Below, piece after piece: positions 43,700-63,671 of a DNA stretch of 64,000 nucleotides. Position 1 is the stretch's first letter. Each line of letters opens with the position of its first letter. The stretch is taken from assembly GCA_018221105.1 (NCBI GenBank), contig JAAOYA010000001.1:50812-114811 (forward strand), read 5' to 3'. Source of the DNA: Candidatus Woesearchaeota archaeon. GTDB taxonomy: Archaea; Nanobdellota; Nanobdellia; Woesearchaeales; JAAOYA01. A model generated the notes under the pieces. It had not been told where the DNA came from, searched no databases, and saw nothing but the letters and a program-made list of their open reading frames with translations. Made by a program: the position numbers and the translations under genes.

Positions 43700-43717
43700 A
43701 AAACCACCTTTTGTTAG

Positions 43718-44165: not shown

Positions 44166-44174
44166 TAAAAATTG
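44166..44174. repeat. 9-bp target-site duplication, right
   Basis: TAAAAATTG immediately after CAAAGCC. Confidence 0.85.
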
Positions 44175-44197
44175 GGCTTTGTGTAAAAAGCTGTTTG

Positions 44198-44705: not shown

Positions 44706-44909
44706 ATGCCAAAAAAGAAATTGCCAAGAATTCTTGAAGAATATTGTATTGGATGCTCACACTGTGTCATGGCTTGCACTCCTAAAACACTAAAAATGGT
44801 TGATGGAAAAGCAAAAATTGTCAATGCAACTGTCTGTGATAGTGAAGGGCGCTGCGTCGCAGCATGCCCTGTTGGCGCAATACCACTTCTTGAAGATAAG
44901 GAATACTAG
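44706..44909 (+). CDS. Ferredoxin (4Fe-4S dicluster type)
   Basis: CIGCSHCVMAC and CDSEGRCVAACPVGAI. Confidence 0.9.
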   Translation: MPKKKLPRILEEYCIGCSHCVMACTPKTLKMVDGKAKIVNATVCDSEGRCVAACPVGAIPLLEDKEY

Positions 44910-44953
44910 AAAAGTAGTAAGCTTTATAAAGGAATATCTTCATTTTATCGTCT

Positions 44954-45736
44954 ATGAAGAAAAAAGGGGCGGTCAAAAAGAAGAGTTTGCAAACCAAAAA
45001 GAAAAACTTTGTTCCGGCCGGCATAAAAGTCTTGATTGGCTACACTTCATTTCTTGGAATTTTTTATTTAACATATTTGATTTTTGGCGCTTATGTTCCA
45101 ACAACAGTTTTGTTCGGTAAAATCATTGAAGGCTCGCTAGCAGTACTAATAAACATGGTTTATTTGACTGCATTATTAGTGCTACTATACGGTTTAATTA
45201 AGCGAAAGCGTTGGGGTTGGGAGCTAGCTTTAGGATGGTATATTTTTGGAATTATTGATTCTATAATATCCACCATCATAATCAAAGCCAATAATTTTTC
45301 AATACTAGCAAGCTTTGTACAATTATCTTCTTTAGGAATTATTTTTATGAATGTAGTGGCATTGTGGTATTTAATCTCAAAAAAAGATTATTTTCTGGGG
45401 CGCAAATTTGACAGACACTTTCACGTTGAAGACCAAATTTTTGTTACAATGACTGTGATATTCTTATCGATTATGCTAGTGTTAATTGTTGGAGCTGCAA
45501 AAACCTATTATGACACCACAAAAACATTAACTGCTAGTGCCATTGATGACTTGAGCGGCAAAACACTTTTTAATTCAATACTAACATGCGAGCAAAAATT
45601 TGGCGAGTTTCGCGACAGCTGCTATTTGGTAACAGTAATAATGCATGAAAACGCAGAGAAAGTTACACTACAAGACGTGTGTGACAGAATACAATCAACG
45701 TTTTTCAAGTTCACTTGCATGAGGGCAATAACATGA
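44954..45736 (+). CDS. Multi-TM membrane protein with C-terminal Cys module
   Basis: About 5 TM helices; C-terminal CEQ...DSCYL...CDRI...C; ATGA overlap with the next gene. Confidence 0.7.
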   Translation: MKKKGAVKKKSLQTKKKNFVPAGIKVLIGYTSFLGIFYLTYLIFGAYVPTTVLFGKIIEGSLAVLINMVYLTALLVLLYGLIKRKRWGWELALGWYIFGIIDSIISTIIIKANNFSILASFVQLSSLGIIFMNVVALWYLISKKDYFLGRKFDRHFHVEDQIFVTMTVIFLSIMLVLIVGAAKTYYDTTKTLTASAIDDLSGKTLFNSILTCEQKFGEFRDSCYLVTVIMHENAEKVTLQDVCDRIQSTFFKFTCMRAIT

Positions 45737-48051
45737 ACAAAAGAGGACAATTAACAGTTTTCATAATAATTGGAATAATACTGATAGTCTCCACTGCACT
45801 AATATTTTTCATACGATCACAAATCACTGATTCTCAAAAGTTTGAAGAGCCAACACTTGAAACAGTGCCAACAGAATACCAACCATTACAACAATTCATC
45901 ACGCAATGCTTACAAACAACCTCAAAAGAAGCAATAATCAAGATTGGAATGCAAGGAGGCTACATTAGTACTAGTGTGCAAGATATTGACTTGACAGGAG
46001 GACAAGTATTTCGTGCCAGCGTTACTGACCCGACAAGTGCTGGAATGGAATCTGTGCAGTACAGCCCAAACAATAATTTGAAAGTTCCTTACTGGTGGTA
46101 TTTAGATTCATCAAACACTTGCAATACTCCTTGCCAGTTTGACTCTAAAATGCCGCCTCTTAGAAAAACTGATGAAGCATTAATTATTAGTACTCAGTCA
46201 GCTATAGAAGTACAAATAGAACGCTATGTAGAGCAGCAATTGCCAGTTTGCCTTGGGGGTTTCGAACAATTCAAAACACAAGGTTTTAGTGTAGAAGTAA
46301 ATGATAACCCTGAAGTGACAGCTCATATTGCGCGATTGGATACTGCTGTTGCTTTGAAGTATCCGCTTGAGTTGAAACGTGAAGGTTTAAGAAGTACTAA
46401 AATAGAAAATTTTATTGTACGCCACGATGTAAACTTGCAACGAGCCTATGACGCTGCACAAACAGTCTTACTCTCTAATGTTCAAAACGAGTATTTTGAA
46501 AGGCCAATAATACAAGCTATTGCAGCATTTAGTGGTGTTGATGAGAACAAATTGCCTCCAATGGCAAGTTATGGTTATGGTGACACTCCTGTAGTGACAT
46601 GGCAAAAAAGCGCTGTAGAAGAGCCGCTAACAGATTTGTTAGCGATACACACTCCACTATACCAAGTTGTTGGAACAAACAATTATCAACTGAGATCTTT
46701 TGATAGCGAACTACAAACTGGCTTGTACAAGAGCTTTAACATGCCAATAGCTAGTATGTCAGCAGAAGATTATTCTGAGTTGAATATTAATTTTGTGTAC
46801 TATGATTGGTGGCCAATATACTATGATATAACAGGCGAGAACAGTGATCAAACATTTGTTAGGCCAACAATTATTCCAGGACTGCGCTCAATACTGCCTT
46901 TTATTCCTGCTGGAATGGATGTTTTAGACACAGTGCTGCCAACAAGCTATATCTTCAACTATGACCTATCATATCCTATGATAGTTACTATTAATGATCC
47001 GACAGCTTTCAATGGTGAAGGCTACACATTTCAGTACGCACTTGAGGTAAACATTCGAAACAATTATCCATTAAACGGTTCAATTGATGATTTGTTAAAT
47101 CCGACACGCGGCGAATTATCTGACTTGTTTCACAACCCATTGCAGCGCAATAGTGGCAATATAACAATACGTGTTAGTGATAAGCAAACAGGCGAGCCAG
47201 TACTTAAGCCTAGCATTACTTTTGTTTGTGGCAGGCAACGGTTACAACTTGACAGTTCAACATTATATGCTGAAGATTCCGATGGCACGGTAATAACTCG
47301 TTTGCCGGTTTGTCTTGGTGGCAAATTACTCGTCAGCGCAAAAGATTATTTTAGCCCGCCAATAAATTTAAGCACGGAAATTGGCCGCGCTACAACAGTA
47401 AGGGCTAAACTGCGGCCTATAAGAACGCTTAATTTAACAGTGAAAATACAAAATTTGACAAAGCAATCAACTAGTGCTCGCTACAAGAGTGGTTGGTACT
47501 TGGACAAATCACTTTCAACTATTGGAACAACACAAACAGTATTAGTTTCTTTAGAGCGAAAACCGCAAGTTTATGGCGAGCAACCATTTAACATCATCGC
47601 TTCTTTTGATGTTAACAATCAAGTGTTGCCAGTAAAAATAATTCCTGGAGAGTACAAGGCAAGTATTACAACAACTTATGAACTGCCATCAACAGTCATA
47701 GAAGAGTTAGTAATTCCAGAAGATAGAATTTGTGTCAAAAGAAATTTTTTAGGACAGTGCACTAAACGTGAAACAATTCCCCAAATAGTGTTTAATGAAA
47801 CAATAGCACAAGGCAGTCTGAACTTCGAGTTCGAAGTTAGTGATTGGTCAATAGAAGACGCTAACACAATGACAGTTTACACAATAGTCGCGCCGGGAGA
47901 CCTTGGATATTATGAGTTAGAAGTCACCAACGATTTAGGACAAGTCACAAAACCGAACGCGCTAAAGCATGATGACCTAAATATTTTGGGAGAGTCAGAA
48001 GAATTAGTTGAAGAGTTCCAAAGACCTTACTTGGAGCCAACGTATGAATAA
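45733..48051 (+). CDS. Large pilin-like protein with class III-type signal (KRG/Q), paralog 1
   Basis: MNKRGQLTVFIIIGIILIV; shares GG(Y/W)I, PYW, CLxxF and F.YD..YP..VTI.D motifs with 55656-57671. Confidence 0.75.
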   Translation: MNKRGQLTVFIIIGIILIVSTALIFFIRSQITDSQKFEEPTLETVPTEYQPLQQFITQCLQTTSKEAIIKIGMQGGYISTSVQDIDLTGGQVFRASVTDPTSAGMESVQYSPNNNLKVPYWWYLDSSNTCNTPCQFDSKMPPLRKTDEALIISTQSAIEVQIERYVEQQLPVCLGGFEQFKTQGFSVEVNDNPEVTAHIARLDTAVALKYPLELKREGLRSTKIENFIVRHDVNLQRAYDAAQTVLLSNVQNEYFERPIIQAIAAFSGVDENKLPPMASYGYGDTPVVTWQKSAVEEPLTDLLAIHTPLYQVVGTNNYQLRSFDSELQTGLYKSFNMPIASMSAEDYSELNINFVYYDWWPIYYDITGENSDQTFVRPTIIPGLRSILPFIPAGMDVLDTVLPTSYIFNYDLSYPMIVTINDPTAFNGEGYTFQYALEVNIRNNYPLNGSIDDLLNPTRGELSDLFHNPLQRNSGNITIRVSDKQTGEPVLKPSITFVCGRQRLQLDSSTLYAEDSDGTVITRLPVCLGGKLLVSAKDYFSPPINLSTEIGRATTVRAKLRPIRTLNLTVKIQNLTKQSTSARYKSGWYLDKSLSTIGTTQTVLVSLERKPQVYGEQPFNIIASFDVNNQVLPVKIIPGEYKASITTTYELPSTVIEELVIPEDRICVKRNFLGQCTKRETIPQIVFNETIAQGSLNFEFEVSDWSIEDANTMTVYTIVAPGDLGYYELEVTNDLGQVTKPNALKHDDLNILGESEELVEEFQRPYLEPTYE

Positions 48052-48074
48052 AAATAAAAAGCAGTAATAAAACA

Positions 48075-51000
48075 ATGATTAAAGTGAGAAAAACAAACGC
48101 AGTGCTTATGATATTATTAATAGTTTTACTGCCAGTATACAGTGCTCAAGTTTTTGCTGCTAGCATAACAATAAATTCTATAACAGGAAGTGAAGGTGTT
48201 GACTGGATTAGAAAAAGCGATGATACAACAGCACTTGACGTTACAATATTTGATGATGGACTGCCAGTAGAAGCCAGTGACGTCACTTACGAGAGACCTT
48301 ACAAGGCAAGCACAGCATTTAGTCAATGCACAGATGGCGGAGGAGGATACTACACTTGCACTGCAACAGAAACAGATACCCTGCCAGGCGGCAAACTAAC
48401 TTATACTGTGGTTTTTGGCAGTGAAAGTCGCGGTGCTCAAATACTAATTGATGACTTCGCACCATATACTAACGCGCTAAACATTTACTCAGATTACGTC
48501 AATGCAACTCCAACAATCAACTTTGAAGTCAGCGACATACCATCAAGTGGCTCAAGCGATCTATGCAGTGGTTTCAAAGCAGTAAAAGTTTTCGAGCGCA
48601 GCACCCGACAAGAACTATCAACCAACACTTTAGAAATTAGTGCTTGCTCATACGATGGCGGCGCAAGCGTAGATTTATCAACACTATCAGCAGGAGAGCA
48701 CGTCATTTGCTTGTTGGCGGTGGATCGAGCTGGAAACTTTGATAGCGCTTGGCTTGCAACAAACACCATTTGCAAAGAAGTAAACATTGACAACACAAAA
48801 CCACAAGTTAGCAGTGTAGCATTGACAAGCAATGGAGAGCAAGTACATTATTTGGCGCCAGCAGGAAAATTCGTTTACCTAAATATTAGTGTGACAACAG
48901 ACACAGCGCCAATAAGCGCTACTGAATCTTGGGCAGATTTATCAAATATTGCTGGCAATGACGCTCTTGACAAAGTGCCGCCATTATGCGAAATATTAGA
49001 AGAAACAAATACTTCAACAACTTATAATTGTTATTGGTATTTTAGAGCAAAAATTGCTGACAGTGGAAGCATTAGCGTACCTTACAACATTGTTGACGAG
49101 GCAGGAAACTTCAACACAAACACTAAAAGCTTCTCATTAAGCTTAGATGTTAACCCGCCAACAATAACAGAAGTAGTAACAAATCACGTTTACGATTCTG
49201 TAAGCTATGTAGGCTACAACAACACATTCATAGTACGATTATCTGATGGTGCTAGCGGCAGTGGCTTTAGTGAAGAACAAGTATTTCTGAACAATTTAAT
49301 AGCTGACGAGTGCAGTGGTCAAAGCGGTGATTGGAATTGTTATTGGTATAACATCATACCTCCAACAAGCACTGGTAGCAATTTAGCATTACAAGTTGAG
49401 GCATTTGATGACACAGGACAACAAAACACTTTTAGCACAACACTGCCAACAGATTTCACACCGCCTGTTGTTAATAACATCACATTGCACAACGATGATG
49501 CCATAATTTTAGAAGATGAAACAATAATATTCAAAGTACGACTCTACGACGCGCAAAGCGGAATAAAAAGCGATGATGGAAGTTACAACGCTTACGCCAA
49601 CTTTGAAAACATTAACGGTGAGTCAATGGTACAAGCAAGCCAATGCTACAATGAAAACGACAATTTTTGGCTTTGTGAATTTCAAGCAACAAGAGTATGG
49701 GCAGGACCAGTGAGTGCAAGTTTTACAATTTATGACACAGCAGAAAACAAAGAAGAAGTTGCCACTAATAGTCAATTCTACTACAATGGTGGCGGAGCAT
49801 ACATAAACAACGAATTCAACAGTTACAGAGTTTACCGCTCTGACACTGCAACAGTAGCACGCGATTATTGGACTATCGAAGTATTAGATCACACGCCAAG
49901 AGCTGTTGACCGTGAGATTACTGACTTTTTGAGTGTTCCAGTAACATTCACACTAGAATTAAAAGGTTCAAGCAGTGGAATAAAACCATTATTATTAGAG
50001 TTCAGAGGATGCGAGGGAACACAAAACAGTCAATATTATGACGCTTACACAAAAGACGGTCATGAAAACCTGATAATGAACGGGTTCGCACCAGCAGGCC
50101 CGTCGCCTTACACTTTTGATTTTCAATTCTTTTTAGTGGATGACACAATGCCTGATGAGGCAAGCTTGAATTTTACTTGTGAGTTTTCAACAATAACACA
50201 GCGCGGCACAATGGCAACAAACGCAGAACTCGATTTAGTAAACATTAGTGTTCCATTATACAATTATCCTTTAGGCGAGCTTTCACAAAACGTGGAAAAC
50301 AAAATCGACAATATCAAAGACTCTTGGATTGTAAGCGCAGAATGGATAGGAAGCCTGCAAGAAATACTAGATTACGGCCAAAGAATATGTTCAATGATTA
50401 AAATATATCATAAACTAGCAGTGTTGATAGCTTGGATAAAAGACGGCCTTAAAGGCTGTCCTATGTGCAAACCTGCAGAAAAAGCAGCCGGCGGAATGGT
50501 CTTTGCAATAGAAGATCTGGCAGGCTCTGTATGGAAAAAATATGCTAATTACATGTGCGCCGCGCTAGAGTGCAGATTGTGGAATGAAATAATTGCTCAT
50601 AACGAAGATGGTGATAGTGGAAAATTCACAAATTTCTTTGGAGATATTGAAGAGTGGGTTGACGATCCACTAGCATTGAAAAAAGCTTGCGGCGAACCAG
50701 GAACAGATGCTTATACTGAATGTGTTAAGAACTTAGGAGACGTTGGATTTGACACAAAAGAAAGCTTGATTTGGAGCACTTTAACATTATGCGTTCCAGG
50801 AGTAGTTTATAACTTACAAAAAGCTAGGGTTTTAGAGTGCAACAAGATAAGTTGTTATCAGCAAACAGCTGATCAAACATACACAGTTGACGAGTGCGAA
50901 AAACAATATTCTTATGGAATGTGCAAATATGTTTACGGACAAATATTCAATTTGATACCATTATCAAAACTAACAAGCAATTTTGTAAAAGCAGTAGGTA

Positions 51001-51239
51001 ACGTATTAAAAGATCCTGTAGCACTAACGACTTTTGCAATAAAATGGGTTTGTGCAGTAAGTACTTGTGGCGGAGAAAAGGGTAGTTGTGGTGCTTGTAC
51101 TGTAGTATCGCAAGTTGATTGGCTAGCGTCACTTGCTTGTGATTTAGGAGCTGGTGATTGCCCAGGACTCTGGGATGATAGTGATACAACAGTTGATGAT
51201 AGTATTTGTGAAGAAGTACTGGACGAGGATGATGAATAA
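48075..51239 (+). CDS. Giant secreted Ig-like repeat + Cys-rich helical protein, paralog 1
   Basis: Signal peptide LLPVYSA; repeated D-x-x-P-P / D-x-AGN Ig-like units; Cys-rich C-terminus. Confidence 0.75.
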   Translation: MIKVRKTNAVLMILLIVLLPVYSAQVFAASITINSITGSEGVDWIRKSDDTTALDVTIFDDGLPVEASDVTYERPYKASTAFSQCTDGGGGYYTCTATETDTLPGGKLTYTVVFGSESRGAQILIDDFAPYTNALNIYSDYVNATPTINFEVSDIPSSGSSDLCSGFKAVKVFERSTRQELSTNTLEISACSYDGGASVDLSTLSAGEHVICLLAVDRAGNFDSAWLATNTICKEVNIDNTKPQVSSVALTSNGEQVHYLAPAGKFVYLNISVTTDTAPISATESWADLSNIAGNDALDKVPPLCEILEETNTSTTYNCYWYFRAKIADSGSISVPYNIVDEAGNFNTNTKSFSLSLDVNPPTITEVVTNHVYDSVSYVGYNNTFIVRLSDGASGSGFSEEQVFLNNLIADECSGQSGDWNCYWYNIIPPTSTGSNLALQVEAFDDTGQQNTFSTTLPTDFTPPVVNNITLHNDDAIILEDETIIFKVRLYDAQSGIKSDDGSYNAYANFENINGESMVQASQCYNENDNFWLCEFQATRVWAGPVSASFTIYDTAENKEEVATNSQFYYNGGGAYINNEFNSYRVYRSDTATVARDYWTIEVLDHTPRAVDREITDFLSVPVTFTLELKGSSSGIKPLLLEFRGCEGTQNSQYYDAYTKDGHENLIMNGFAPAGPSPYTFDFQFFLVDDTMPDEASLNFTCEFSTITQRGTMATNAELDLVNISVPLYNYPLGELSQNVENKIDNIKDSWIVSAEWIGSLQEILDYGQRICSMIKIYHKLAVLIAWIKDGLKGCPMCKPAEKAAGGMVFAIEDLAGSVWKKYANYMCAALECRLWNEIIAHNEDGDSGKFTNFFGDIEEWVDDPLALKKACGEPGTDAYTECVKNLGDVGFDTKESLIWSTLTLCVPGVVYNLQKARVLECNKISCYQQTADQTYTVDECEKQYSYGMCKYVYGQIFNLIPLSKLTSNFVKAVGNVLKDPVALTTFAIKWVCAVSTCGGEKGSCGACTVVSQVDWLASLACDLGAGDCPGLWDDSDTTVDDSICEEVLDEDDE

Positions 51240-52596
51240 AATGTTACGACCAAGCCAACCCGCGCAATGGCCAACACAGCAAGCTAGTCAATACTATCAA
51301 AGCGATCCGCAAGCTTACGCTCAAAACCAACAATACAGTGTTAACGGTCAGAATTATCATCCTTCACAACCAATACCAGGGCAACCAACACAACACCACC
51401 TACTAATTTGGGGGGTAATAATATTTTTTACATTGTTATTAGTAGGCTCTGGAACAATCATTTACTTGTATAATAAAACTCCAAGCGAGCCACCATATTT
51501 TATTCCAACAACAGAACCAACAACACCAATTGTCAAGACAGGTCTGCGTGTGGAACAAGCAGTGTTCGCGTCAAACGTTGACACAAGCGGAGCGTATTAC
51601 ACGTACACTGTGCAGCCAAACGCAGAGTACGAAATAGGTAGTTACGCATACTTATACGTCAAAGTCAAAGGTTTTGATTCAAGACTAACAAACGGCAAGT
51701 CAGAAGTTCACGTAGTAGAAGACATAAAAGTCTTAGGACCAGATGGCAGAACAGTTAGAGACTTGAACTTGCCAGCGATCGCAGAGTACAAAGAAACAAT
51801 CCAAAACCTTCACGAGTACGTAGACTTTTCTGCAAAGATTCCACTGTGGAATGATTTGCCACAAGGGCGATACACTGCAGTGATAACATTGCATGATATG
51901 ATAGGAGGTGAGAGTGTCAGCGAACAGTATAAGTTTACATTATCACAGCCTGACAAGAGTGCACTAATAGAGCAAGACTTTTCAAAACTAACAGGAGAAG
52001 TAACAGTTCAAATAAAATTCTTTGACCCTCAAGGACAAGAAATTACTGCACTAGCACAACAAAAAACTGTCAGTTCAACAAACCCATTAGATTACGAGCC
52101 CACAATACCGCATTATTTTATTGCAGGAGAGTACTCTGCACAAATAATTTTCACCGATGCTGATGGCAACACTGAAACAAAAACAGTCACACTAGAAGAA
52201 AAAGACGAATTACTAATTGACAATTTAGACTTTGCAAGCAAAGTAATGACTAATTATGACTACTTACAACAAGCAGGCGCGATGTACAACGCAGGAGACA
52301 TAATATACATTTACTTCGAAGTCAAAGACTTCGAACAAGACAGCGCAGGCAAAGTAGCATTTGTAGAAGACATTGTGACAACAGGACCTGACGGTAAAAT
52401 TGTTGACAGTTTAAGCGCCGACAATCTTTACTCTGTTGATGATGAATATAGTTCAACACAAGCAATGTTTCAAGTAAAAAACACCTTACCAACAAGCACC
52501 AATTATCAAAAAGGAGAATACACAACAACAATAACTATTACTGATAGGTTAAGCGGTCAATCAACAACTAAGAAAGGAGTGTTCACACTAAAATGA
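51232..52596 (+). CDS. Single-pass membrane protein: P/Q-rich cytoplasmic N-terminus, duplicated extracellular Ig-like domain
   Basis: Q/P-rich segment, then TM, then two copies of Y.Y..VK.F...VEDI...GPDG; start uncertain (51229, 51232 or 51241). Confidence 0.7.
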   Translation: MNKMLRPSQPAQWPTQQASQYYQSDPQAYAQNQQYSVNGQNYHPSQPIPGQPTQHHLLIWGVIIFFTLLLVGSGTIIYLYNKTPSEPPYFIPTTEPTTPIVKTGLRVEQAVFASNVDTSGAYYTYTVQPNAEYEIGSYAYLYVKVKGFDSRLTNGKSEVHVVEDIKVLGPDGRTVRDLNLPAIAEYKETIQNLHEYVDFSAKIPLWNDLPQGRYTAVITLHDMIGGESVSEQYKFTLSQPDKSALIEQDFSKLTGEVTVQIKFFDPQGQEITALAQQKTVSSTNPLDYEPTIPHYFIAGEYSAQIIFTDADGNTETKTVTLEEKDELLIDNLDFASKVMTNYDYLQQAGAMYNAGDIIYIYFEVKDFEQDSAGKVAFVEDIVTTGPDGKIVDSLSADNLYSVDDEYSSTQAMFQVKNTLPTSTNYQKGEYTTTITITDRLSGQSTTKKGVFTLK

Positions 52597-53102
52597 AAAA
52601 ACTAACAATTGCAATAACATTATTGTTGACAATTATAGTTTTACAAACTGTCATTGCTTTTGACGAGCCAAGCATTGGAGAAGCACAACTAATAGCTGAC
52701 GATGTTGATCCAACAACAGAACCAGAACTCTATGATAAATTATACGCTGCGGCAAGCAGTGAAAATGTCGACTACACCCCAGCACAACAAGCAAGAATAG
52801 AAGAAATAAGAGCAAACGCTAGAACATTTGGAACAAGCACGACAACACAACCAGAAGAAGATGAAGGCGGAGTTGTTGAAACTATTGTAGGATTTTGGAA
52901 CGCGATAAACCCTTTTGGTCCAGACGAAGCAGAAGCAGGCGAGGTCAGCGCTGATGGACAAAACGTTGAAGCTACACCAACAGTTGACACTGGAATATTA
53001 AGTATTGAACAAATAATAGAACAATCAAACGCAGGGCAACAAACAGTTCAAACAACAGAGCCTGTAACAACAACAAGTTGTAGTGACAGGCCTGCTAGCT
53101 AA
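52593..53102 (+). CDS. Secreted acidic hypothetical protein
   Basis: Signal peptide MKKLTIAITLLLTIIVLQTVIA. Confidence 0.65.
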   Translation: MKKLTIAITLLLTIIVLQTVIAFDEPSIGEAQLIADDVDPTTEPELYDKLYAAASSENVDYTPAQQARIEEIRANARTFGTSTTTQPEEDEGGVVETIVGFWNAINPFGPDEAEAGEVSADGQNVEATPTVDTGILSIEQIIEQSNAGQQTVQTTEPVTTTSCSDRPAS

Positions 53103-53103
53103 A

Positions 53104-54900: not shown

Positions 54901-54903
54901 AAA

Positions 54904-55659
54904 ATGAAAAAAATAAACAATTATTTTGGCAAAGAATTGCAAGCCATCAAGGCTTCAATGACTGGTGGTCAGCGCTACATTAAAATTTTGTTTGTTGACG
55001 CAGCGTTTATTTTACTCAGCATTCTAGTATCATTTATGATTAGTGGACTCTTGGCTTTTATCACACGATTATTTCCTGATTTTGAAATGATTATGAACAC
55101 TCCAATAGAACAATTACAAGCCACTTTAGACGTCGGGCAAGCGCTTGCGAGCAGTAAGGCTGGATTGTTTTTGGTAATCATTACTTTGATGGCAGGTTTT
55201 ATCCTGATGCTAGCACTAACAGGCTTTTTTAGCAGTCTAAGTCTTTTTATAGCCCAGAAAACTAAACCCTCAAAAAAATTGTTGCAACAAGGTTTGATTC
55301 TTGGAAGTGTTTGGATTGGACTGACACAATTATTATTGTTTGGTATTAGTGCTATAACAAAACTTAACGCTTTTATCATAATGATTGTTGGATTAATATC
55401 AATTTTCTATTTTGCACTGGCAGTTTTGAATTTAGCAAAAACAAAAGATATTCTTTTGGCAGTACAAAAAAGTTTTCAAACACGTGTTTTATACTATCTT
55501 GCAAGCATTGGACTTTTCGTGCTAGTGTTTATTGTTTTAAACATGCTCGCTTACCCACTACAATTTTTGAGTTTTTTCGGAATTGTACTGACAGTAATAA
55601 TTTTTGAAACATTTATAATATGGAGTCGCGTATACTTAGCAGAAATACACAAAAAATGA
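54904..55659 (+). CDS. Multi-TM membrane protein
   Basis: About 6 TM helices; ATGA overlap with the next gene. Confidence 0.7.
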   Translation: MKKINNYFGKELQAIKASMTGGQRYIKILFVDAAFILLSILVSFMISGLLAFITRLFPDFEMIMNTPIEQLQATLDVGQALASSKAGLFLVIITLMAGFILMLALTGFFSSLSLFIAQKTKPSKKLLQQGLILGSVWIGLTQLLLFGISAITKLNAFIIMIVGLISIFYFALAVLNLAKTKDILLAVQKSFQTRVLYYLASIGLFVLVFIVLNMLAYPLQFLSFFGIVLTVIIFETFIIWSRVYLAEIHKK

Positions 55660-57671
55660 CTAAAAGAGGACAAATAACATTGTTTATCATCATTGGCATA
55701 GTGCTAGTTTTGAGCGCTGCACTACTAATTTATTTGATGAGTCCTCTATCATTTCAGGAGACTAAAGTGTTGCCTGAAAATGTTAAGCCAGTAACTGGCT
55801 TTGTAGAAGAGTGCACTGCGATAGTTGGCGAGACCGCGATCAGACAGTTAGCAGCTGGAGGCGGCTGGATTAATGTACCACAAGGTTTTCTTTTAGAGCC
55901 TTCAAGTTATTTGTCCCTTGACAAGTTTAACTTGCAAAAACTTCCTTATTGGTATTATGATGGTAAAGATTATGCTCCGACACTACAAGTTATGGAGGAA
56001 GAACTAGAAAATTACATTGCACAAAATGTTGAAACTTGCTTGGACGAATTCACTGTTTTTGATGATCACTTTAAAGTCCGCGTTTATGACGATCCAACTG
56101 CAAAGGTTGAAATACAAAAAAATAATGTTTTAATAACTTTAGATTACCCAATAAAAATTGACACTCTTGATTCTCGCGAGACAGCTAAAAGGCGCGAGTT
56201 CACAACATTACTTGACGCTAATCTGCGTGAGATTCACGAGTTTGCAACAGACTTGTTAGAAAGTGAGAACGAGCAAGAACACTTTGAGCGAATAACAATG
56301 GACTTGGTAAGCCAAAACCCTGACATTCCACTGACAGGTTTTGATTTTGATTGTGGTGCTCCAAAAAACTGGTATTTGCCAACAGTTAAACAACAATTAC
56401 AAGAACAATTATTTTATAATCTGCCAAGAATTCGTTTCAAAAACACTGCTTACGTGCCATTTATCGCGCCAGAACAAAACTATGAGCGTTTAAAAGAAAA
56501 GTATCCTGCTAGCGAGATTTTTGCTGGCAACACTCCAGAACCAGGCGAGAAACCTGAGGACGCTTATGAATACTTTCACTATTTTTTAGATGTTAGCGAT
56601 GTTGATTACCCTCGCTTGACAGCTGCTGCTAGGTACTTGCCAAACTGGGGAATGGATTTTATAGTAACGCCTAGTGATGGACCTTACCTAAAAGCCGATC
56701 GTGGCACTGGACCAAAAAAATTCTTAAGATTTTTGTGCATTCAAACATATCACTTCACCTACGACATTATTTATCCGTTGATGGTGACTATTACTGACCA
56801 ACAAAGTTTTGAAGGTCAAGGATTATCTTTCAATTATGCGATTCCGATAATCATCACTGACAATCAAGGTGATAGATCACCTTATGCTATGAGATCTTTT
56901 AGCCCTCAAAACCCTGACACTAGCGTGTGTTCAGATTATAACACTGACCGTGTTATTGATGTTAGGGCTGTTGGAGCTTTTGATTACACTGGCATTAAAG
57001 AACCATTGAATGGTGTTAACATTAGTTATGAGTGTTTTACACATCTTTGTGCTCTTGGCAAGACAACTGCACAAGGTGGAGTTTATCGCTTTAGCACTTT
57101 TGAGCCAGGATTTTGCGCTAATGGTTATCTAATAGCGCAAAAAGATGGTTATTTAGAAGGGCGAACACAATTAACGAGTGCTAGTGATACTGTGCAGATT
57201 GAAATGAAAAAATTACGAGAGTTAGACTACGATGTAGTGCCAATAGACAGTCGTGATTTAACAGTTGATGACGATTTTGAGCCTGACGAGCAAGTATTAA
57301 TTCATATTACTGAAACAAACACAGGCTATGAAATCTACAAAACCTATCCTGCGAACACTGTGATGACTGATAGTGATTACCAATCATTGTTTGGCAGTTT
57401 AGAATTGCCACAAGACACTACTATTGAATTATTAGAAGACAATGCAAACTATGAACTAGACCTTTTGTTAATTGAAGGCAATAATATTGTTGGCGGCTAC
57501 AAAGCAGAGTGGAACGTTAAATTTGTAGATATTATTGATGAAAACAACATGACATTTTACGTCATAAGAAAACACCCTCCAGTGCTTGATGATATTCAAA
57601 AGCAAGCAGAACTGTTTGACTACATAGAAAACGGCAATTATTCACTGACGGTAAAACCAACATTTAAATAG
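55656..57671 (+). CDS. Large pilin-like protein with class III-type signal (KRG/Q), paralog 2
   Basis: MTKRGQITLFIIIGIVLVL; homologous to 45733-48051. Confidence 0.75.
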   Translation: MTKRGQITLFIIIGIVLVLSAALLIYLMSPLSFQETKVLPENVKPVTGFVEECTAIVGETAIRQLAAGGGWINVPQGFLLEPSSYLSLDKFNLQKLPYWYYDGKDYAPTLQVMEEELENYIAQNVETCLDEFTVFDDHFKVRVYDDPTAKVEIQKNNVLITLDYPIKIDTLDSRETAKRREFTTLLDANLREIHEFATDLLESENEQEHFERITMDLVSQNPDIPLTGFDFDCGAPKNWYLPTVKQQLQEQLFYNLPRIRFKNTAYVPFIAPEQNYERLKEKYPASEIFAGNTPEPGEKPEDAYEYFHYFLDVSDVDYPRLTAAARYLPNWGMDFIVTPSDGPYLKADRGTGPKKFLRFLCIQTYHFTYDIIYPLMVTITDQQSFEGQGLSFNYAIPIIITDNQGDRSPYAMRSFSPQNPDTSVCSDYNTDRVIDVRAVGAFDYTGIKEPLNGVNISYECFTHLCALGKTTAQGGVYRFSTFEPGFCANGYLIAQKDGYLEGRTQLTSASDTVQIEMKKLRELDYDVVPIDSRDLTVDDDFEPDEQVLIHITETNTGYEIYKTYPANTVMTDSDYQSLFGSLELPQDTTIELLEDNANYELDLLLIEGNNIVGGYKAEWNVKFVDIIDENNMTFYVIRKHPPVLDDIQKQAELFDYIENGNYSLTVKPTFK

Positions 57672-57675
57672 GACT

Positions 57676-60600
57676 ATGAACGCAAAAACTATTGTGAAAA
57701 CAAAAAAAAGCATCAGTTTATTGATGACTTACCTGATAATATTATTGCCAGTTTATTCTGCAGTAGCCTTCGCAGCGCCAAGCGCGACATTAACAACAGG
57801 TGCTACAGGCCTAAACACTGCTATTAACAAACAATACCGCATCAAAATAGAGTGGGACGCTGTTACTAGTTCATCATTTAATCATTATATGATACTGCGA
57901 AATAATGTTTTTTTAGAAAATAGGACAGTGCCATACTTTGACGATTACAATGTAGTGGCTGACACAACTTACAATTATCAAATAATACTGGTTGATAATA
58001 ATGGTGACACAAGTCCTTCGATTTCGTGGAGTGTTAGAACGCCAGAAGTCGATACTGAACCGCCAGAGTTAGACATGACAGTTGTGGAGTACACAAATCA
58101 ACAATACTTGGTGCTCAGTGGCAGCACAGAAACTGATACTGTGGTAACATTGTATGTTAACGGTAATTTCTTTGATGATGTTGACACACGAGATTTTGGA
58201 ACCTACAGTTTCAGCGGGATATTATTAAATCAAGGCAGCAATACTTTGCGCTTTGAGGCAGTAGACTATTTTAACAACAGCGCAGAATACACATTCGATG
58301 TTGTAAGTGACACAATACCGCCAGACTTAACTTTTGATGAAGTTCTTGCAGCTTCAACAAGCACCACAATAACACTAACAGGCGATGCGTCAGAGGACAT
58401 GACTGTTGACTGGTATATAACAGACTCATTAGATGTAACAGCTCCATCTAAAGTATTACAATTAAAAACCACCACAGTAGAGCAAAACACAGTGCGACTA
58501 GAGTGGGATATTCTTGAAGTTGATGATTTTGACGAATACATAATATATCGCTCAGATGTAGGAGCACTAGCTAAGACTCCAAACAACGAATACACTGATG
58601 ACGAAGTAAGTAGTGATATAACATACACTTATACTGTAGCAGCAATGGACCAAAATAATAATATTGGAGAAGAGTCAGATGACTTAACTGTTACAACACT
58701 TTCTGACGGCATCGACAAAGATGTGCCGGAAGCAGTACTAGTTGTAGAGCCTGATAATAATTGGGACTTAGTAGCAGGAAGTTTCAGTGAAACAATAACA
58801 ATACTCGACGGGACAGTATCAACAGTTCAATACATTGCAACAGACTTAGCAGACAACACTGCAGAAGAAACCTTTAGCATAGCTCATGATAGTGAAGCGC
58901 CATATTTTATAGAGCCAGTATCGATTGATAGTTACAGTCCATCATATGATAGGCTAGTGGACATTAAAGGCCAAGTAAGCGAAAAAGCAACAATATTAGC
59001 ATATGTTAACGGTGATTTGAAAGATAATGTTTCAACTGACGAGTTCGGCTTTTTTAGCATTGATTTAGAACTAACACGCGACATAGAAGCAGATGACTCG
59101 TATAGTGCTGGCAGTGGCACAATCAGTATATCGCGTGGCCCGTGGATTAACAACATTCGACTAGTAGCAATTGACGCGATAGGACAACAAAACGTTTTAG
59201 AAGGCGTTATCGATTACACATTGTGTGGCAGTGGCACTTGGTGGGATGTTGACATGAGCGAAGTATACCCAAACATTTTGACTCCCAGACTATTACTGTT
59301 AGGTGTTGAACAAATAGGCTTTGATATAGAACTAGACTGGCGTGGCACTTTAGACAGTCCAACAATTAGTAGTTCTCGCGTTAGCAGGGTTATGATTAGC
59401 CCTGCAGAAGAAGAAGATTACGATCATGACTGGGTGCAACCGCCAGTAAACACTTGGAGCACCACCAACAAACGAGGCTACATACAAATACCATTCGTTC
59501 GCGACCCACTAAGCTTAGATGATGAAAACATGACATCATTTGAAAAAGAAACAAACATATCAGAGCACCGCGAAAACAGTTGTTTGCTGCCAGGATTTGG
59601 ATGTATAAAGTTGTTCTTAGAATTAGAGATTAATTTTGCGGACACTACAGGAACAAACCCTCGAAATCAAGGAATGAGAACACAAAAAGAATGCATTCCA
59701 ATAGAAATAGTAATTGACAAAAGACTCAACCCAGACATCATACCAGACAAGTTTTTGGAACGTTCAATTGAATTTTTAGAAAACAGTGTAGACCTAATAG
59801 ACACAGTGCTGCCAAGACTACAAAACCTCAAAGTATGGTTATTTTGGACTTGTACAGTAAGCTGGGTAGGAGAATGGTTTTTAGCAATCAATGAAAAATA
59901 CGCCTGTGAATTCGCAAACTTTGCAGCAAACCCTGATGAAAAATTCAATAAAGCTGTTGCAAAAAGAGGCGTTGGTGCATGTAGTGAAGCTTATAAAGAA
60001 AACTCTGGCGCTTGTGAGACTTGTGCCGAGTCAATACAAAAACGGGAGAGCTATGTTTACAATACTGATTGGGTGTGCCAACGGATTTATTGTTCTAATG
60101 CTCCAACATTACAAAACTATGTAAAAGAAGCACAAGATGATAAGAAAACAGATTTTGTTGATGGAGTTGACATTAATACTGCTTGCGCAGTGTATAATAC
60201 TGCTGACTTGAAATATGATAGTTTAGAAACAGTTTACCAAAAATATGATGATGACAAAGATCTTTACGCTAAATGTTTTGAAGGTTCAGCAAATGAGCGC
60301 AACGCTGCTGAATGTTGTATTTATGAATACATGCGTGAATGGGATAGTGCTTGTGTTTTAATGGATGAAGCAGAGCAAAGTGTTTGCTTGCAAGCACAAG
60401 CAGAAGGTCAAACAAGACCAGGTTGTAATCGCTTGTGGAATAGTGTCGCAGGCTTTTGCGAGCCAACAGGAGAGCCAAAAGCACAATTAGTAATGAGTGG
60501 ATTGCGGTATAGTGATTTTTTCAAAGATGCAACAGAAGCTAGCAGGCTTGGACACCCTCAACTGGGTTATGCTAGTGATTGGCAAACATCAAGCAATTCT

Positions 60601-63162
60601 ATTGCTTACGAGTGCGTTGGCACTTATGGTTGTGGCAATTATCAGAAAGGAGCAAAAATACAAGAAAGTGGTTCACAACAAACTCTATTTTATTGGATTG
60701 CACAAACAAAAGCGGAAGGCGGCAACGCAGCAGGAGGTACTTGCATTGGAACAACAAGAGTCAACGAGTTAACAAATCCTACGATTATTTACTCAATTGA
60801 TTATGGAACTCCTGACGATCCTACTAATCCTGCTATAAGAAGAGGCTATGTTACTCAAACAATTGCCGGTGCAGAAAAAATCAACGGTGAATTTTCCATA
60901 CAGTCAGACACGCATTTCATACCTGCAAGTGATGACTTAAATTTAGACTTTAGTGAAGACTGTGATGGAGAAAATGGAGAATTTGAAAAAATAAGAACTG
61001 AGTTCAACAATAATTGTCCATCAACTCAAGATCGAGAAATGACTCGCGCGCAAGCAATAAAACTATGCGAAAATATCAGAACAGAAGCAGGCATTAGTGA
61101 TAAAGAATACATCGTAGACCCTGCTTCATCACTACTGCGCTCAATACAATGTGCTTGCCTTCCAGCGTTGACTTCATACTTGTCTTTTATGCGCAACATG
61201 TTCAACGCAGTAAAAACATGCTTTGAAACAATACTATTAACAGGCGATGGTAGTGAAGGAGCATGTCAAGCAGTACTAACACAATACATCTGCGACCTAA
61301 TCTATGATTTAATTGCTTGTTTTACACAAAAATATTCTGTTAACACCGTAGGCAACGCTGGAGCAATGGGTGATGGCGGAAGATTCATCGGAGCACTAAC
61401 TAGCGCTGGAGCGTCAGTAGGAGAGCGCGTTCGCGGCAAGTATGGTGACAATGTTATTTACGAAGAAATATTTAGTCAGCGAAAGCTAGCTCACGCAGTA
61501 TGCTTATTCGCGTTCACAGGGGACTGGATTTTTGATGTTGCGGGAATGTTAGAAACAGAATATACTATTCCAATAGAATCAGAAGCATTACTTTACCCAG
61601 CAACGCGAAAGTTCGTTTCAGCAAACCCTTTAACTAACCCTCCAGGACTAGCAACACACTTGTACCATTTAGGAATTGGTTTAGTATCAGGAGCAGACCT
61701 AGATTATGAAATATACTTACAATGTTCTAACACATTAGACTGTCCAGAATTTGAAGGCGGAAGATGCGATTGTGCAAACCTGCCAGACCCTTTGAAAAGA
61801 TCGCTCTCAGGCGGTCGCTTAACAGCTGGAGATATTCTAGGAACTGGACTTGAAGGAGACCAATACCATACATTAGTAGGTGAGAGCGTGCGCTATGACA
61901 CAGCAGTAATCGAGTGGGAGTGGGACAACAAAGACGGCGAGCGCATCACTAGCAAAAAAGAAACACATATCAGCCAAACAGGCGGTGACCCGCCGGCATA
62001 CTGTGAATTCGATATATTTGAAGGAATGTTCCGTTGTAGTTATGATATTGGAGAAGGAAGCTTTGCGTACTTTTCAGATGTTGACACTGAACAAAGCGAT
62101 GGCAAATACTCAACTGGCGAAAGGCTGGCTTTTGATATTGGTGTTAAACAACAAATTCCTGAAGAGAGCGCTAGTTGTTCAACGCAAAACTGCGAGCACA
62201 CAAAATACTTGAGCGTGCGCGTATTCAACCAAAACAGAGCACTAGTCTATGACAACGCAGAAGGCTTCAAACCATTAAACTATAATGGTGAGCGGACCTA
62301 TGAATTGCCTGAAAACTTTATCATCACAGAAGATCACTTCAACCAAAATCCTGCAACAGCAGGAAGAGTACAATGTAGTGTTTTCAAAAGAGAAGGTGCC
62401 AGTATAAGCTTCGACCCTACAATATATTGCGCTGAAAGCATGAAAATAAGTTATAATCACGGCAACACAAACGCCTTGTTTACTTATCAGTTAGGAACAT
62501 TCAGTGCAGGCGATAATCCGCAATTTACTGCTTCTAGCTCGCCGTTTTTATGCGTTTACCAAAATAACATTGCAAAATGCGGCGTTACAGAACTAAAAAT
62601 TAACAGTCTTCCAAGTTCCTCGGCAAGTATTACGATAAAAAAAGAAGGACAAGCGTCCAACGATCCTCGCGGTTGCCAGAGCGCTGCTGGTGGCGCAACT
62701 TGGCAGGCAGAACTAACACTTTATGATGCTCGCGAGACCGGCAGCAATAATTGGGAGCGTGGCGACACTATCACAGTGTATCAGAGTGCACAACAAGAAG
62801 AAACTGTTAGTTTCACAGCAACATGTAAGAGTACTAGTGAAGTATGTGACACTTCAGGACAGCGCCCTGCGGGAAGCAGTGGATGTAATTGTATTAGTGG
62901 CAGTGCTTCAGCTGTTTGCGATGCTAACAAGTATTGTTGGACTGGAACTGATAGTGTTAGTTGTGAAGATGGGAGAAAAGACTTGAGTGCTAGTGGTTCT
63001 GGAGTATCGGGTCTAGAAAACCAACCATGTGGTAGTAATCAGGGGATGTGTCGAGCTCCAAATGGTGTTAATTGTCCTGACGGATTATTTTTTGTTGATG
63101 GGACAAATGATAGTACTAAACAATCTGACTGTGTTGGCGGATTATTTTGTTGTGAGAATTGA
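57676..63162 (+). CDS. Giant secreted FN3/Ig-like + Cys-rich protein, paralog 2 (1828 aa)
   Basis: Signal peptide LLPVYSA; two FN3 units (W...Y.I.R...Y.Y.V/I...D..GN); Ig-like units; long Cys-rich helical and C-terminal regions. Confidence 0.78.
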   Translation: MNAKTIVKTKKSISLLMTYLIILLPVYSAVAFAAPSATLTTGATGLNTAINKQYRIKIEWDAVTSSSFNHYMILRNNVFLENRTVPYFDDYNVVADTTYNYQIILVDNNGDTSPSISWSVRTPEVDTEPPELDMTVVEYTNQQYLVLSGSTETDTVVTLYVNGNFFDDVDTRDFGTYSFSGILLNQGSNTLRFEAVDYFNNSAEYTFDVVSDTIPPDLTFDEVLAASTSTTITLTGDASEDMTVDWYITDSLDVTAPSKVLQLKTTTVEQNTVRLEWDILEVDDFDEYIIYRSDVGALAKTPNNEYTDDEVSSDITYTYTVAAMDQNNNIGEESDDLTVTTLSDGIDKDVPEAVLVVEPDNNWDLVAGSFSETITILDGTVSTVQYIATDLADNTAEETFSIAHDSEAPYFIEPVSIDSYSPSYDRLVDIKGQVSEKATILAYVNGDLKDNVSTDEFGFFSIDLELTRDIEADDSYSAGSGTISISRGPWINNIRLVAIDAIGQQNVLEGVIDYTLCGSGTWWDVDMSEVYPNILTPRLLLLGVEQIGFDIELDWRGTLDSPTISSSRVSRVMISPAEEEDYDHDWVQPPVNTWSTTNKRGYIQIPFVRDPLSLDDENMTSFEKETNISEHRENSCLLPGFGCIKLFLELEINFADTTGTNPRNQGMRTQKECIPIEIVIDKRLNPDIIPDKFLERSIEFLENSVDLIDTVLPRLQNLKVWLFWTCTVSWVGEWFLAINEKYACEFANFAANPDEKFNKAVAKRGVGACSEAYKENSGACETCAESIQKRESYVYNTDWVCQRIYCSNAPTLQNYVKEAQDDKKTDFVDGVDINTACAVYNTADLKYDSLETVYQKYDDDKDLYAKCFEGSANERNAAECCIYEYMREWDSACVLMDEAEQSVCLQAQAEGQTRPGCNRLWNSVAGFCEPTGEPKAQLVMSGLRYSDFFKDATEASRLGHPQLGYASDWQTSSNSIAYECVGTYGCGNYQKGAKIQESGSQQTLFYWIAQTKAEGGNAAGGTCIGTTRVNELTNPTIIYSIDYGTPDDPTNPAIRRGYVTQTIAGAEKINGEFSIQSDTHFIPASDDLNLDFSEDCDGENGEFEKIRTEFNNNCPSTQDREMTRAQAIKLCENIRTEAGISDKEYIVDPASSLLRSIQCACLPALTSYLSFMRNMFNAVKTCFETILLTGDGSEGACQAVLTQYICDLIYDLIACFTQKYSVNTVGNAGAMGDGGRFIGALTSAGASVGERVRGKYGDNVIYEEIFSQRKLAHAVCLFAFTGDWIFDVAGMLETEYTIPIESEALLYPATRKFVSANPLTNPPGLATHLYHLGIGLVSGADLDYEIYLQCSNTLDCPEFEGGRCDCANLPDPLKRSLSGGRLTAGDILGTGLEGDQYHTLVGESVRYDTAVIEWEWDNKDGERITSKKETHISQTGGDPPAYCEFDIFEGMFRCSYDIGEGSFAYFSDVDTEQSDGKYSTGERLAFDIGVKQQIPEESASCSTQNCEHTKYLSVRVFNQNRALVYDNAEGFKPLNYNGERTYELPENFIITEDHFNQNPATAGRVQCSVFKREGASISFDPTIYCAESMKISYNHGNTNALFTYQLGTFSAGDNPQFTASSSPFLCVYQNNIAKCGVTELKINSLPSSSASITIKKEGQASNDPRGCQSAAGGATWQAELTLYDARETGSNNWERGDTITVYQSAQQEETVSFTATCKSTSEVCDTSGQRPAGSSGCNCISGSASAVCDANKYCWTGTDSVSCEDGRKDLSASGSGVSGLENQPCGSNQGMCRAPNGVNCPDGLFFVDGTNDSTKQSDCVGGLFCCEN

Positions 63163-63173
63163 AAATATTATTT

Positions 63174-63671
63174 TTATTTTTGACTGCTTTTGAACTCTTC
63201 TTTTAATTTTTTTGCGTCTAAATTTTGATTGTTGATCATATATGTCCAGTATAATTCTCTTACTAGTTTTTCATCATTTGGTTTTTGTTCTAGCTGTGCT
63301 TCCAATTCACTAATTTTTGTTTTTAATTCAACACTATTCAATGGAGCGCTTTTACTCTTAGATGCTTGTGTTGGTTTTAAAGGAAAATAAATTGTTTGCG
63401 GAGGACCTCCAGGCTTTAAATCTTTAGCAGTACCATAAACTTCACCAGTCTCTAAATCAAAATAAGTAATACTAGCGCCAGGCTCTTCACAAGTGATGCT
63501 TTGTGCTGGGTTGGTTGGTGTTTTTAGTGGTTCTTGAGCATAAACAGGACTAGCTGAAACTATTGCGTAAACTAGCGCAGTGCCAGCTAATGTGGTTGCT
63601 GCCTTTGGCAAGAAACCAACAGTTTTCTCCAAACCATCAAGGCTTTTCTCGTCGATAACATATCCTTCCAT
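63174..63671 (-). CDS. Hypothetical exported protein
   Basis: Hydrophobic TTLAGTALVYAIVSASPVYA segment; helical TPR-like tail; BRE/TATA GAAAGGTTTTTATA upstream. Confidence 0.6.
   Translation of the reverse strand: MEGYVIDEKSLDGLEKTVGFLPKAATTLAGTALVYAIVSASPVYAQEPLKTPTNPAQSITCEEPGASITYFDLETGEVYGTAKDLKPGGPPQTIYFPLKPTQASKSKSAPLNSVELKTKISELEAQLEQKPNDEKLVRELYWTYMINNQNLDAKKLKEEFKSSQK

Follow-up and report, generated by a model that had tools for sequence, protein, structure and literature searches.

What kind of cell-surface structure is encoded by a block of nine adjacent archaeal genes? The question was raised by a 64,000-nt stretch of DNA from a Candidatus Woesearchaeota archaeon (GCA_018221105.1, contig JAAOYA010000001.1, positions 50,812-114,811 of the forward strand), which is called the window here. 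Nine open reading frames (ORFs) on the plus strand occupy its positions 44954-63162 and are named g1 to g9 in their order. We found that the cluster is chromosomal and strongly conserved and that its conserved protein families are undescribed. There is, in our estimate, about an even chance that it is a lineage-wide, chromosomally fixed operon for a Sec-exported envelope complex, which is made of pairs of a membrane anchor and a giant secreted protein and has no machine of its own. The cluster probably encodes a core component of the cell surface that is still undescribed, not a proven pilus or host-attachment machine.

Conservation and duplication of the gene cluster

The ORF calls and the spacing of the genes agree with a preliminary description of the window, which had reported nine co-directional, tightly packed genes. 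Neighbouring genes either overlap by 4 nt or are separated by 1-23 nt. The two claimed couplings of a gene for a multi-spanning membrane protein to a gene for a protein starting with a KRGQ motif were both read directly in the sequence as ATGA overlaps, between g1 and g2 (45733-45736) and between g7 and g8 (55656-55659). The two giant secreted proteins that were said to share the sequence LLPVYSA are present as g3 and g9. All nine products have a signal peptide or transmembrane (TM) helices, and none is a predicted cytoplasmic enzyme or ATPase (Table 1).

The conservation of the cluster was analysed with a pattern scan of one genome per species. The scan returned 189 stretches encoding a relative of g8, which is a lower bound, i.e. 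at least 189 species genomes encode a relative of this KRGQ protein. When 1.8 billion representative proteins were searched exhaustively with a g8 profile, 9505 clusters reached E ≤ 1e-3 and 2364 clusters (50% identity) reached E ≤ 1e-30. The 73 homologs obtained for g8 were all hypothetical proteins of Woesearchaeota or Nanoarchaeota, and the homologs of the operon proteins came exclusively from Woesearchaeota- or Nanoarchaeota-type metagenome genomes. In 80 loci the recurrent gene order was A - g3 - g6 - TMa - B - g9 - TMb, where A and B are the families of g2 and g8, TMa is the family of g7 and TMb is a membrane protein encoded after g9. The lengths in these loci are about 715-750 amino acids for A, about 1000-1100 for the g3-like, 350-1480 for the g6-like proteins and about 250-300 for TMa, followed by about 650 for B, 1250-2500 for the g9-like proteins and about 262-290 for TMb.

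Gene presence was counted only in loci with enough flanking sequence. Of 74 loci, 72 have a g9-like gene after B; TMb comes after g9 in 35 of 44, and TMa stands ahead of B in 39 of 62. Ahead of the g8-like gene, a g6-family member was present in 30 of 44 loci. g3 was present in 29 of 38, and 25 of 32 loci have a gene of the A family upstream of the cluster. From B to g9 the median spacing is -4 nt, with an overlap in 43 of 69 pairs, and from A to g3 it is also -4 nt (overlap in 21 of 27 pairs). Such tight pairing is expected for stoichiometric partners. In the three related loci L001-L003, orthologs of g2 with 704-748 amino acids and orthologs of g3 were present. Since the arrangement recurs in relatives, it is more than chance. 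It had been considered beforehand that the module might be conserved in no relative; the cluster is in fact kept across Woesearchaeota-type genomes.

Three of the nine genes are accessory. Homologs of g1 were found in 2 of 84 loci, including the closest relatives L002 (= L016) and L064, and this gene is lineage-restricted. The variable gene g4 has homologs in 4 of the 84 loci examined, and g5, without a homolog in these 84 loci, is specific to the window. With an iterated profile, homologs of g6 were detected in 50 loci, and their length is variable.

The flanking genes of the clusters are housekeeping genes, with methionyl-tRNA synthetase (MetRS) in four loci, nucleotidyltransferases, S-adenosylmethionine (SAM) synthetase and others, and the examined loci have a single cluster each. 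The GC content across the operon is 0.35-0.41, the same as in the core-gene regions of the window. The window contains genes for aEF-2, aEF-1alpha, FttA/aCPSF1, MetRS, DnaK/DnaJ and one tRNA-Ser and is a piece of archaeal chromosome. No relatives were found among the INPHARED phages or in IMG/VR. A viral or mobile origin was ruled out by this absence, the chromosome-like GC content and the housekeeping flanks.

Two observations on the related loci may be of use. In L020, L021, L022, L027, L037 and L077, genes for a ZPR1-like zinc-finger protein, an MTAP-like phosphorylase, a phosphoribosyltransferase-like protein and a helix-turn-helix protein lie downstream of TMb; this fixed string marks one sub-lineage, and with MetRS preceding the cluster in several loci it is usable as a synteny anchor. 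Many cluster-bearing genomes (among L005-L084, e.g. L043, DATILO010000010.1, and L039, JACQIC010000029.1) were deposited under the name 'uncultured Methanosarcinales archaeon'; 'Candidatus Binatia bacterium' and 'Aenigmatarchaeota' were each used once. Mislabelling or bin contamination is the probable cause.

The preliminary description had regarded the cluster as a duplicated three-gene module. This was upheld for the KRGQ and the giant genes, but not for the multi-spanning membrane proteins g1 and g7, which are unrelated. g2 and g8 are paralogs, as had been proposed, with 25% identity over about 470 amino acids (E 8e-32) and with the quoted motif F.YD..YP..VTI.D...F.G.G..F.YA. When g3 and g9 were compared by BLASTP, the match was confined to the signal peptides (LLPVYSA, E 4e-6). 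The comparison of their ortholog profiles with hhalign gave a probability of 97% (E 1.2e-10). The confident parts of this alignment are the signal peptide, the immunoglobulin (Ig)-like region and a Cys/helix motif of 60 residues, at 893-950 in g3 and 1148-1215 in g9, and without the Ig parts the E values were 1e-4 to 1e-6. We regard g3 and g9 as probable distant paralogs, and by these comparisons the anchors and the giants appear to have been duplicated together.

No similarity of g1 to g7 was found by BLASTP or with profiles, and g1 matches neither g7 nor the TMa and TMb profiles. It was therefore ruled out as a paralog of g7, and the duplication covers two genes only. g7 itself was recognised by a TMa hidden Markov model (HMM) that was built without it (E 2.6e-19). 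TMa, encoded just upstream of the g8 orthologs, and TMb, just downstream of the g9 orthologs, matched each other with an hhalign probability of 99.2%, and the true paralog of g7 sits after the giant gene in most relatives. In this organism the TMb copy is missing downstream of g9; a second assembly of the locus has a convergent gene at this place, with a serine hydrolase and a radical-SAM gene farther on. In L001 (1-1720) and in L045, a third A-family paralog, of about 850 amino acids in L001, was observed upstream of the cluster with a minus-strand gene in between, and the anchor family was thus expanded further in some lineages.

The anchor proteins, the giant proteins and their neighbours

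The N-terminus of g2 reads MNKRG followed by QLTVFIIIGIILIV and that of g8 MTKRG followed by QITLFIIIGIVLVL, with the putative cleavage site between G and Q (MNKRG/QLTVFIIIG... and MTKRG/QITLFIIIG...). Both proteins match the FlaFind-type pattern, i.e. K or R at -2, G or A at -1 and about 20 uncharged hydrophobic residues. In an alignment of 91 N-termini of the A and B families, K or R stands immediately ahead of the cleavage-site residue, which is G in 73 and A in 18 cases (-1). Q is found at +1 in 91 of 91, T or S at +3, F at +5 in 90 of 91, G at +9 and Y at +21. The reading of K/R-G-Q plus a hydrophobic stretch as the class III (prepilin-type) pattern fits these sequences, and the conservation goes beyond the need of a plain anchor. 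Because it is hard to explain for a passive anchor, A and B are likely cut by a class III signal peptidase. The motif was present on no other ORF of the window or of about 1.3 Mb of related loci.

The substrates of the EppA-type peptidase (DUF361) carry a QxSxE motif with the i, i+2, i+4 spacing that is also seen in A and B, and class III signals are known on non-pilin proteins such as binding proteins, proteases and the bindosome (PMC2910488). Woesearchaeota express archaellins (PMC11606122), and class III peptidases therefore exist in the group. No Pfam or NCBIfam family, including Class_IIIsignal (DUF361), was matched by g2 or g8 at E ≤ 0.1, and no PHROGs match was obtained.

An AlphaFold2 model of g8 was confident, with a mean predicted local distance difference test (pLDDT) of 87. 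It has a TM helix at residues 2-28, a low-confidence linker at 30-37, an alpha/beta domain at about 41-410 (pLDDT mostly >90) and three beta-sandwich domains at about 425-640. The linker is variable, contains proline and separates the TM helix from the ectodomain. The model does not have a pilin fold, since the N-terminal helix is neither continuous with the globular domain nor packed on it. In Foldseek searches of the PDB and BFVD with this model, the beta-sandwich domains alone were matched, for example by a transthyretin-like domain with a probability of 0.99, and the TM-scores were below 0.2. The alpha/beta domain, which matched nothing in the PDB or BFVD, is novel as modelled. Beyond generic Ig-like hits, no pilin was matched by the g8 model in the PDB, and a profile search of the PDB with the B family gave only FN3/Ig or nothing.

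The claim that the window has no pilus ATPase, platform or prepilin peptidase was borne out: none of these was detected in the 64 kb when the ten largest other ORFs were compared with Pfam and the rest were judged by length and TM count. Likewise, the families that recur in the neighbourhood of the cluster (about 10 kb, about 80 genomes) include no secretion ATPase, TadC/PilC-like platform, A24 peptidase or small pilin. The proposal that g2 and g8 are 'oversized minor pilins' of an appendage was not supported by this lack of machinery or by the g8 model, for which the suggested Foldseek check against pilins yielded no pilin-like match.

The proteins with six TM helices had no Pfam or PDB match among 56 members of TMa and TMb. 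The conservation profile of TMa and TMb lacks conserved acidic or other polar or catalytic residues, so that an enzymatic role, for example as prepilin peptidase, is improbable. g1 and g7 were rejected as candidates for this peptidase, as no Peptidase_A24 hit and no conserved Asp of the GxGD type was found, also among the 56 members. g7 is probably a membrane platform or assembly partner.

The giant protein g9 has an array of FN3/Ig domains up to about residue 500, a Cys-rich core at about 505-1470 and a variable, beta-rich and Cys-knotted C-terminus. In g3, Ig-like repeats are followed by a Cys-rich helical region at the C-terminus. The core of the g9 family is constant, with about 1000 residues, dozens of invariant cysteines and semi-hydrophobic helices, whereas its flanks are variable, with between 104 and 783 amino acids on the N-terminal and between 1 and 1020 on the C-terminal side. 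The semi-hydrophobic helices of g9 (Kyte-Doolittle 1.1-1.5) are at 720-738, 1153-1171, 1199-1217 and 1274-1292 and have equivalents in g3; no segment of the g9 core reaches the hydrophobicity of a TM helix. In the g3 family alignment 20 cysteines are invariant, and most of the 33 cysteines of g3 are invariant in the family. g9 contains 272 D+E and 130 K+R residues. Neither giant has a membrane anchor of its own, and each has 6-7 N-glycosylation sequons.

The model of the g9 core was of low quality (pLDDT 55, predicted TM-score 0.38); its long helices, the longest of about 60 residues, have low confidence. Few family members were recovered by the word-indexed homolog search, which left 13 sequences for the underlying alignment. 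With this poor model, Foldseek gave only beta-sandwich matches (best PDB E 0.019) and no TraN/TraG-like, fusexin-like or toxin-like fold. In the N-terminal arrays of g3 and g9, Big_3, FN3, the Bap B-region, Glucodextran_B and a Ca-tandemer repeat were matched weakly to moderately. The PDB profile search of the g9 family found FN3/Ig only, and g3 had weak Ig hits in Pfam and the PDB.

Taken together, the Pfam, NCBIfam, PHROGs and PDB matches of the nine proteins and of 56 TMa/TMb-, 36 g6-, 33 g3- and 13 g9-family members were limited to Ig/FN3-type repeats. No Pfam family was found for g1, no family match for g5 and no PDB or Pfam match for g6. A weak Peptidase_C39_2 match in g6 was discarded, as it recurred in 0 of 36 family members, and a multihaem or metalloprotease role was rejected because CxxCH and HExxH motifs are absent. 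In our literature search, the cluster was described in no paper found.

The start codon of g4 is ambiguous (51229, 51232 or 51241). The protein has a cytoplasmic, Q/P-rich N-terminus and a TM helix at residues 58-76, and it matched DUF4625 (E 3e-7) and Big_13 (E 1.5e-6) in Pfam. In g6, a conserved Cys-containing domain was seen at the C-terminus in the family alignment. Its N-terminal hydrophobic segment (53104-53190) ends with LLTASVLSC, which has a lipobox-like Cys, and g6 could be an archaeal lipoprotein. The TATA-like box is likely the operon promoter and would give a transcript with a short leader or none. The T-rich stretch is possibly an oligo-T terminator shared with the convergent gene at 63174-63671 (-).

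Table 1. Positions and features of the gene cluster in the window
Feature	Position	Strand	Description
TATA-like box TTTATAAA	44923..44930	+	about 24 nt before the g1 ATG; read from the sequence
g1	44954-45736	+	260 amino acids, 5 predicted TM helices, C-terminal 4-Cys tail
g2 (A family)	45733-48051	+	772 amino acids, MNKRGQ start, single TM helix, large ectodomain
g3	48075-51239	+	1054 amino acids, acidic, secreted, Sec signal peptide ...LLPVYSA, 33 Cys
g4	~51229/51241-52596	+	about 455 amino acids, single-pass membrane protein, Ig-like ectodomains
g5	52593-53102	+	169 amino acids, signal peptide, secreted, very acidic, low-complexity
g6	53104-54900	+	about 598 amino acids, 12 Cys, secreted or lipoprotein-like
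g7 (TMa family)	54904-55659	+	251 amino acids, 6 TM helices
g8 (B family)	55656-57671	+	671 amino acids, MTKRGQ start, then TM helix
g9	57676-63162	+	1828 amino acids, acidic, secreted, Sec signal peptide ...LLPVYSA, 58 Cys
T-rich stretch TTATTTTTATTTTT	63166..63185	+	directly 3' of the g9 stop; read from the sequence

Several other genes of the window were noted. The convergent gene downstream of g9 encodes a protein of 165 amino acids, whose signal-like segment ends with SPVYAQ and so resembles the LPVYSA in g3 and g9; the signal peptidase of this organism may thus prefer 'PVY-x-A' in general, without a specific link to the cluster. Directly upstream of the putative operon promoter, an ORF for 67 amino acids at 44707-44910 (+) has two Cys clusters and reads like a 4Fe-4S ferredoxin by its sequence. 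The region before it, at 39743-44632, is AT-rich (GC about 0.29) and encodes a fused N6-methylase/Eco57I-type restriction-modification protein of 885 amino acids, along with four small ORFs on the minus strand; a defence island or acquired DNA is a possible reading. At 32061-33773 (+) lies the gene for a secreted protein of 570 amino acids with three MopE-type putative metal-binding motifs (E 3e-27) and 19 cysteines, and divergent from it, at 28951-31977 (-), that for a signal-peptide protein of 1008 amino acids without known domain. Another giant, of 1457 amino acids with 54 cysteines and no Pfam family, is encoded at 15-4388 (+), followed by a secreted protein of 259 amino acids (4447-5226). 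The giant was rejected as a member of the g3 and g9 families, as it had no hit to either HMM.

The proposed envelope complex and its alternatives

In the envelope complex that we favour, A (g2) and B (g8) would be monotopic proteins that insert with the N-terminus inside and the C-terminus outside by means of their prepilin-type N-termini. A class III signal peptidase encoded elsewhere would probably trim them after the G or A at -1, and the hydrophobic helix would remain as a tether. Each anchor would be made in a fixed proportion with its own giant, g3 with A and g9 with B, and would hold it at the surface. The six-TM proteins (g7/TMa and, in relatives, TMb) and the g6-family protein may serve as membrane platform or assembly partners. 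The conserved Cys-rich cores would form the structural body of a coat or spike, and the variable Ig/FN3 arrays and C-terminal extensions would be its exposed, fast-evolving face that contacts the surroundings, possibly host cells. The near-universal, single-copy conservation in a housekeeping context is explained by a core envelope component no worse than by host attachment, and the reading of A and B as minor pilins that display adhesins for attachment to a host is contradicted in part.

Several points weigh against this explanation. The binding of A to g3 and of B to g9 is something we infer. The invariant G or A at -1 and Q at +1 exceed what a passive anchor needs, which hints at a handling in the style of type IV filaments. 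With 33 and 58 cysteines, g3 and g9 differ from S-layer (surface layer) proteins, which are usually Cys-poor, and the model of the g9 core is unreliable. Since TMb is missing in this genome, a role as platform is not essential in every lineage.

A special case of this envelope complex, and not an additional explanation, is a true two-dimensional S-layer, in which g9 with or without g3 would be the crystalline canopy and B and A the SlaB-like stalks. We think it unlikely. In its favour, the translational coupling of an anchor gene to the adjacent gene for a giant, acidic and secreted protein resembles slaAB, nearly all of the lineage has the cluster, in a housekeeping context, and the giants have Ig-like arrays. 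In addition, S-layer genes were among the top-expressed genes of Woesearchaeota in a lake metatranscriptome, where the protein family is not stated (PMC11606122). There is, however, no similarity to solved S-layer proteins: the PDB profiles of the B, g9, g6 and g3 families found only FN3/Ig or nothing, and Foldseek found nothing relevant. The anchor of A and B is N-terminal and not a C-terminal TM helix with a coiled coil, and 33-58 conserved cysteines and a helical core are atypical. Moreover, seven to nine genes are far above the need of a lattice, and the sequons are few.

Equally doubtful is a self-contained surface machine of a kind not seen before that would be specific to Woesearchaeota-type DPANN archaea. 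Here the anchors with prepilin signals and the six-TM platforms would hold disulphide-locked giants with helical cores, which would contact partner cells and possibly form a membrane bridge or pore, without a dedicated ATPase.

A type IV pilus-like appendage is somewhat less probable than either. It would have A and B as oversized minor or tip pilins that are cleaved by the peptidase and lifted by an ATPase and platform encoded elsewhere, and the filament would show g3 and g9 as adhesins. The strict class III-type motif of A and B and its spacing as in the EppA/DUF361 substrates speak for such a filament, as does the presence of class III peptidases in the group. Modular large pilins exist (PMC8179133), and the type IV pilus loci of Thermoproteales include two large proteins, with conserved cysteines in almost all components (PMC4858521). 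Against it, neither the window nor the neighbourhoods of the cluster revealed an ATPase, a TadC/PilC protein, an A24 peptidase or a small major pilin, and the motif does not recur on other ORFs of the related loci. The helix of the g8 model ends at residue 28 and is followed by the Pro-containing linker instead of continuing as an alpha-1 helix, and no pilin was matched in Pfam, the PDB or with Foldseek.

Still lower, with a small chance at best, we rank a contact device that acts on the membrane of a host. The core helices of g9 and g3 would insert into this membrane as a pore or fusion bridge, and A, B and the six-TM proteins would anchor the device in the symbiont. The semi-hydrophobic helices of the conserved g9 core with their equivalents in g3, and the long helices in the low-confidence model, are in line with this. 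Also, the peripheral modules are variable, as expected of host-facing parts, and cultivated DPANN archaea are reported to require contact to a host cell. On the other hand, no core segment is as hydrophobic as a TM helix, the core is kept across hundreds of species with presumably different partners. No structural match to fusexins, toxins or conjugation proteins was obtained, but with a g9-core model of this quality the comparison carries no weight.

That the genes are not one system but unrelated surface-protein genes side by side is very improbable: g1, g4 and g5 are poorly conserved or window-specific and in a minority of genomes (e.g. L007, L010, L041, L056) A-g3 is not linked to B-g9, but the order from A to TMb recurs in distant relatives with overlapping stop and start codons, and the cluster contains paralogous pairs.

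Woesearchaeota are among the most widespread uncultured archaea, and the cluster is a concrete, near-universal candidate for a role in their envelope or in partner contact. Its seven conserved genes all encode membrane or secreted proteins from unannotated families, and for one of these families public data contain more than 2,300 sequence clusters. The strict conservation of a prepilin-type signal on proteins of 650-770 amino acids without linked pilus machinery is relevant to how widely archaea employ class III signals outside filaments. The cluster also supplies defined targets for metaproteomics, antibodies, cryo-electron tomography and structure prediction in enrichment cultures.

Comparison with known surface systems

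Two archaeal systems were rejected as the identity of the cluster. The arCOG01314-associated secretion system (Makarova et al. 2015; PMC5898192) is defined by DUF4350, a MoxR ATPase, vWA and pfam07760, which are absent in g1-g9 and in the recurrent flanking families. The defining domains of the NEQ255 family context of DPANN archaea are absent as well.

The N-termini of A and B resemble those of the EppA-type DUF361 pilins of Methanococcus (QxSxExxxL) in the basic stretch, the G or A at -1, the Q at +1, the about 20 hydrophobic residues and the conserved positions +1, +3 and +5 (PMC2910488). They differ in having F and not E at +5 and in the lack of a Pfam Class_IIIsignal match. Unlike these small pilins, A and B have 650-770 amino acids, four ectodomains and a flexible linker after the helix, and no assembly genes are nearby. 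The type IV pilus loci of Thermoproteales (Makarova et al. 2016, PMC4858521) also encode large proteins with conserved cysteines together with class III-signal proteins, but their secretion ATPase, TadC and small pilins are absent from the cluster. With the bacterial giant repeat adhesins (Bap/LapA/Big- and FN3-array), g3 and g9 share the N-terminal arrays. In contrast to them, what is conserved is a Cys-rich core of about 1000 residues that is not repetitive and has no known relative, and no type I secretion system, sortase or autotransporter signal is present.

Closer in principle are the binding proteins of the Sulfolobus bindosome (PMC2910488), which like A and B are non-pilin ectodomains tethered by a prepilin-type N-terminus. 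ArlF/FlaF is likewise monotopic with a pilin-like N-terminus, and FlaF binds the S-layer (PMC4425475). No relationship in sequence or fold to either of them was detected, and here each anchor is paired with a giant secreted protein. The bindosome requires the BasEF ATPase and platform, whereas no such genes are linked to the cluster. In SlaA/SlaB of the Sulfolobales, the gene of a membrane-anchored beta-sandwich stalk adjoins the gene of a larger secreted protein. This is an architectural analogy only, as there is no homology, the anchor of A and B is N-terminal and not C-terminal, and the cluster has two paralogous pairs, polytopic proteins and Cys-rich helical cores.

By sequence or predicted fold, the cluster belongs to none of the compared families. 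By analogy, it would work most like the non-filament prepilin-type anchors of the bindosome and FlaF combined with a stalk-and-canopy pair of the SlaA/SlaB kind. In conclusion, the cluster is best described as an archaeal surface assembly that uses prepilin-type anchors and is built entirely from undescribed families.

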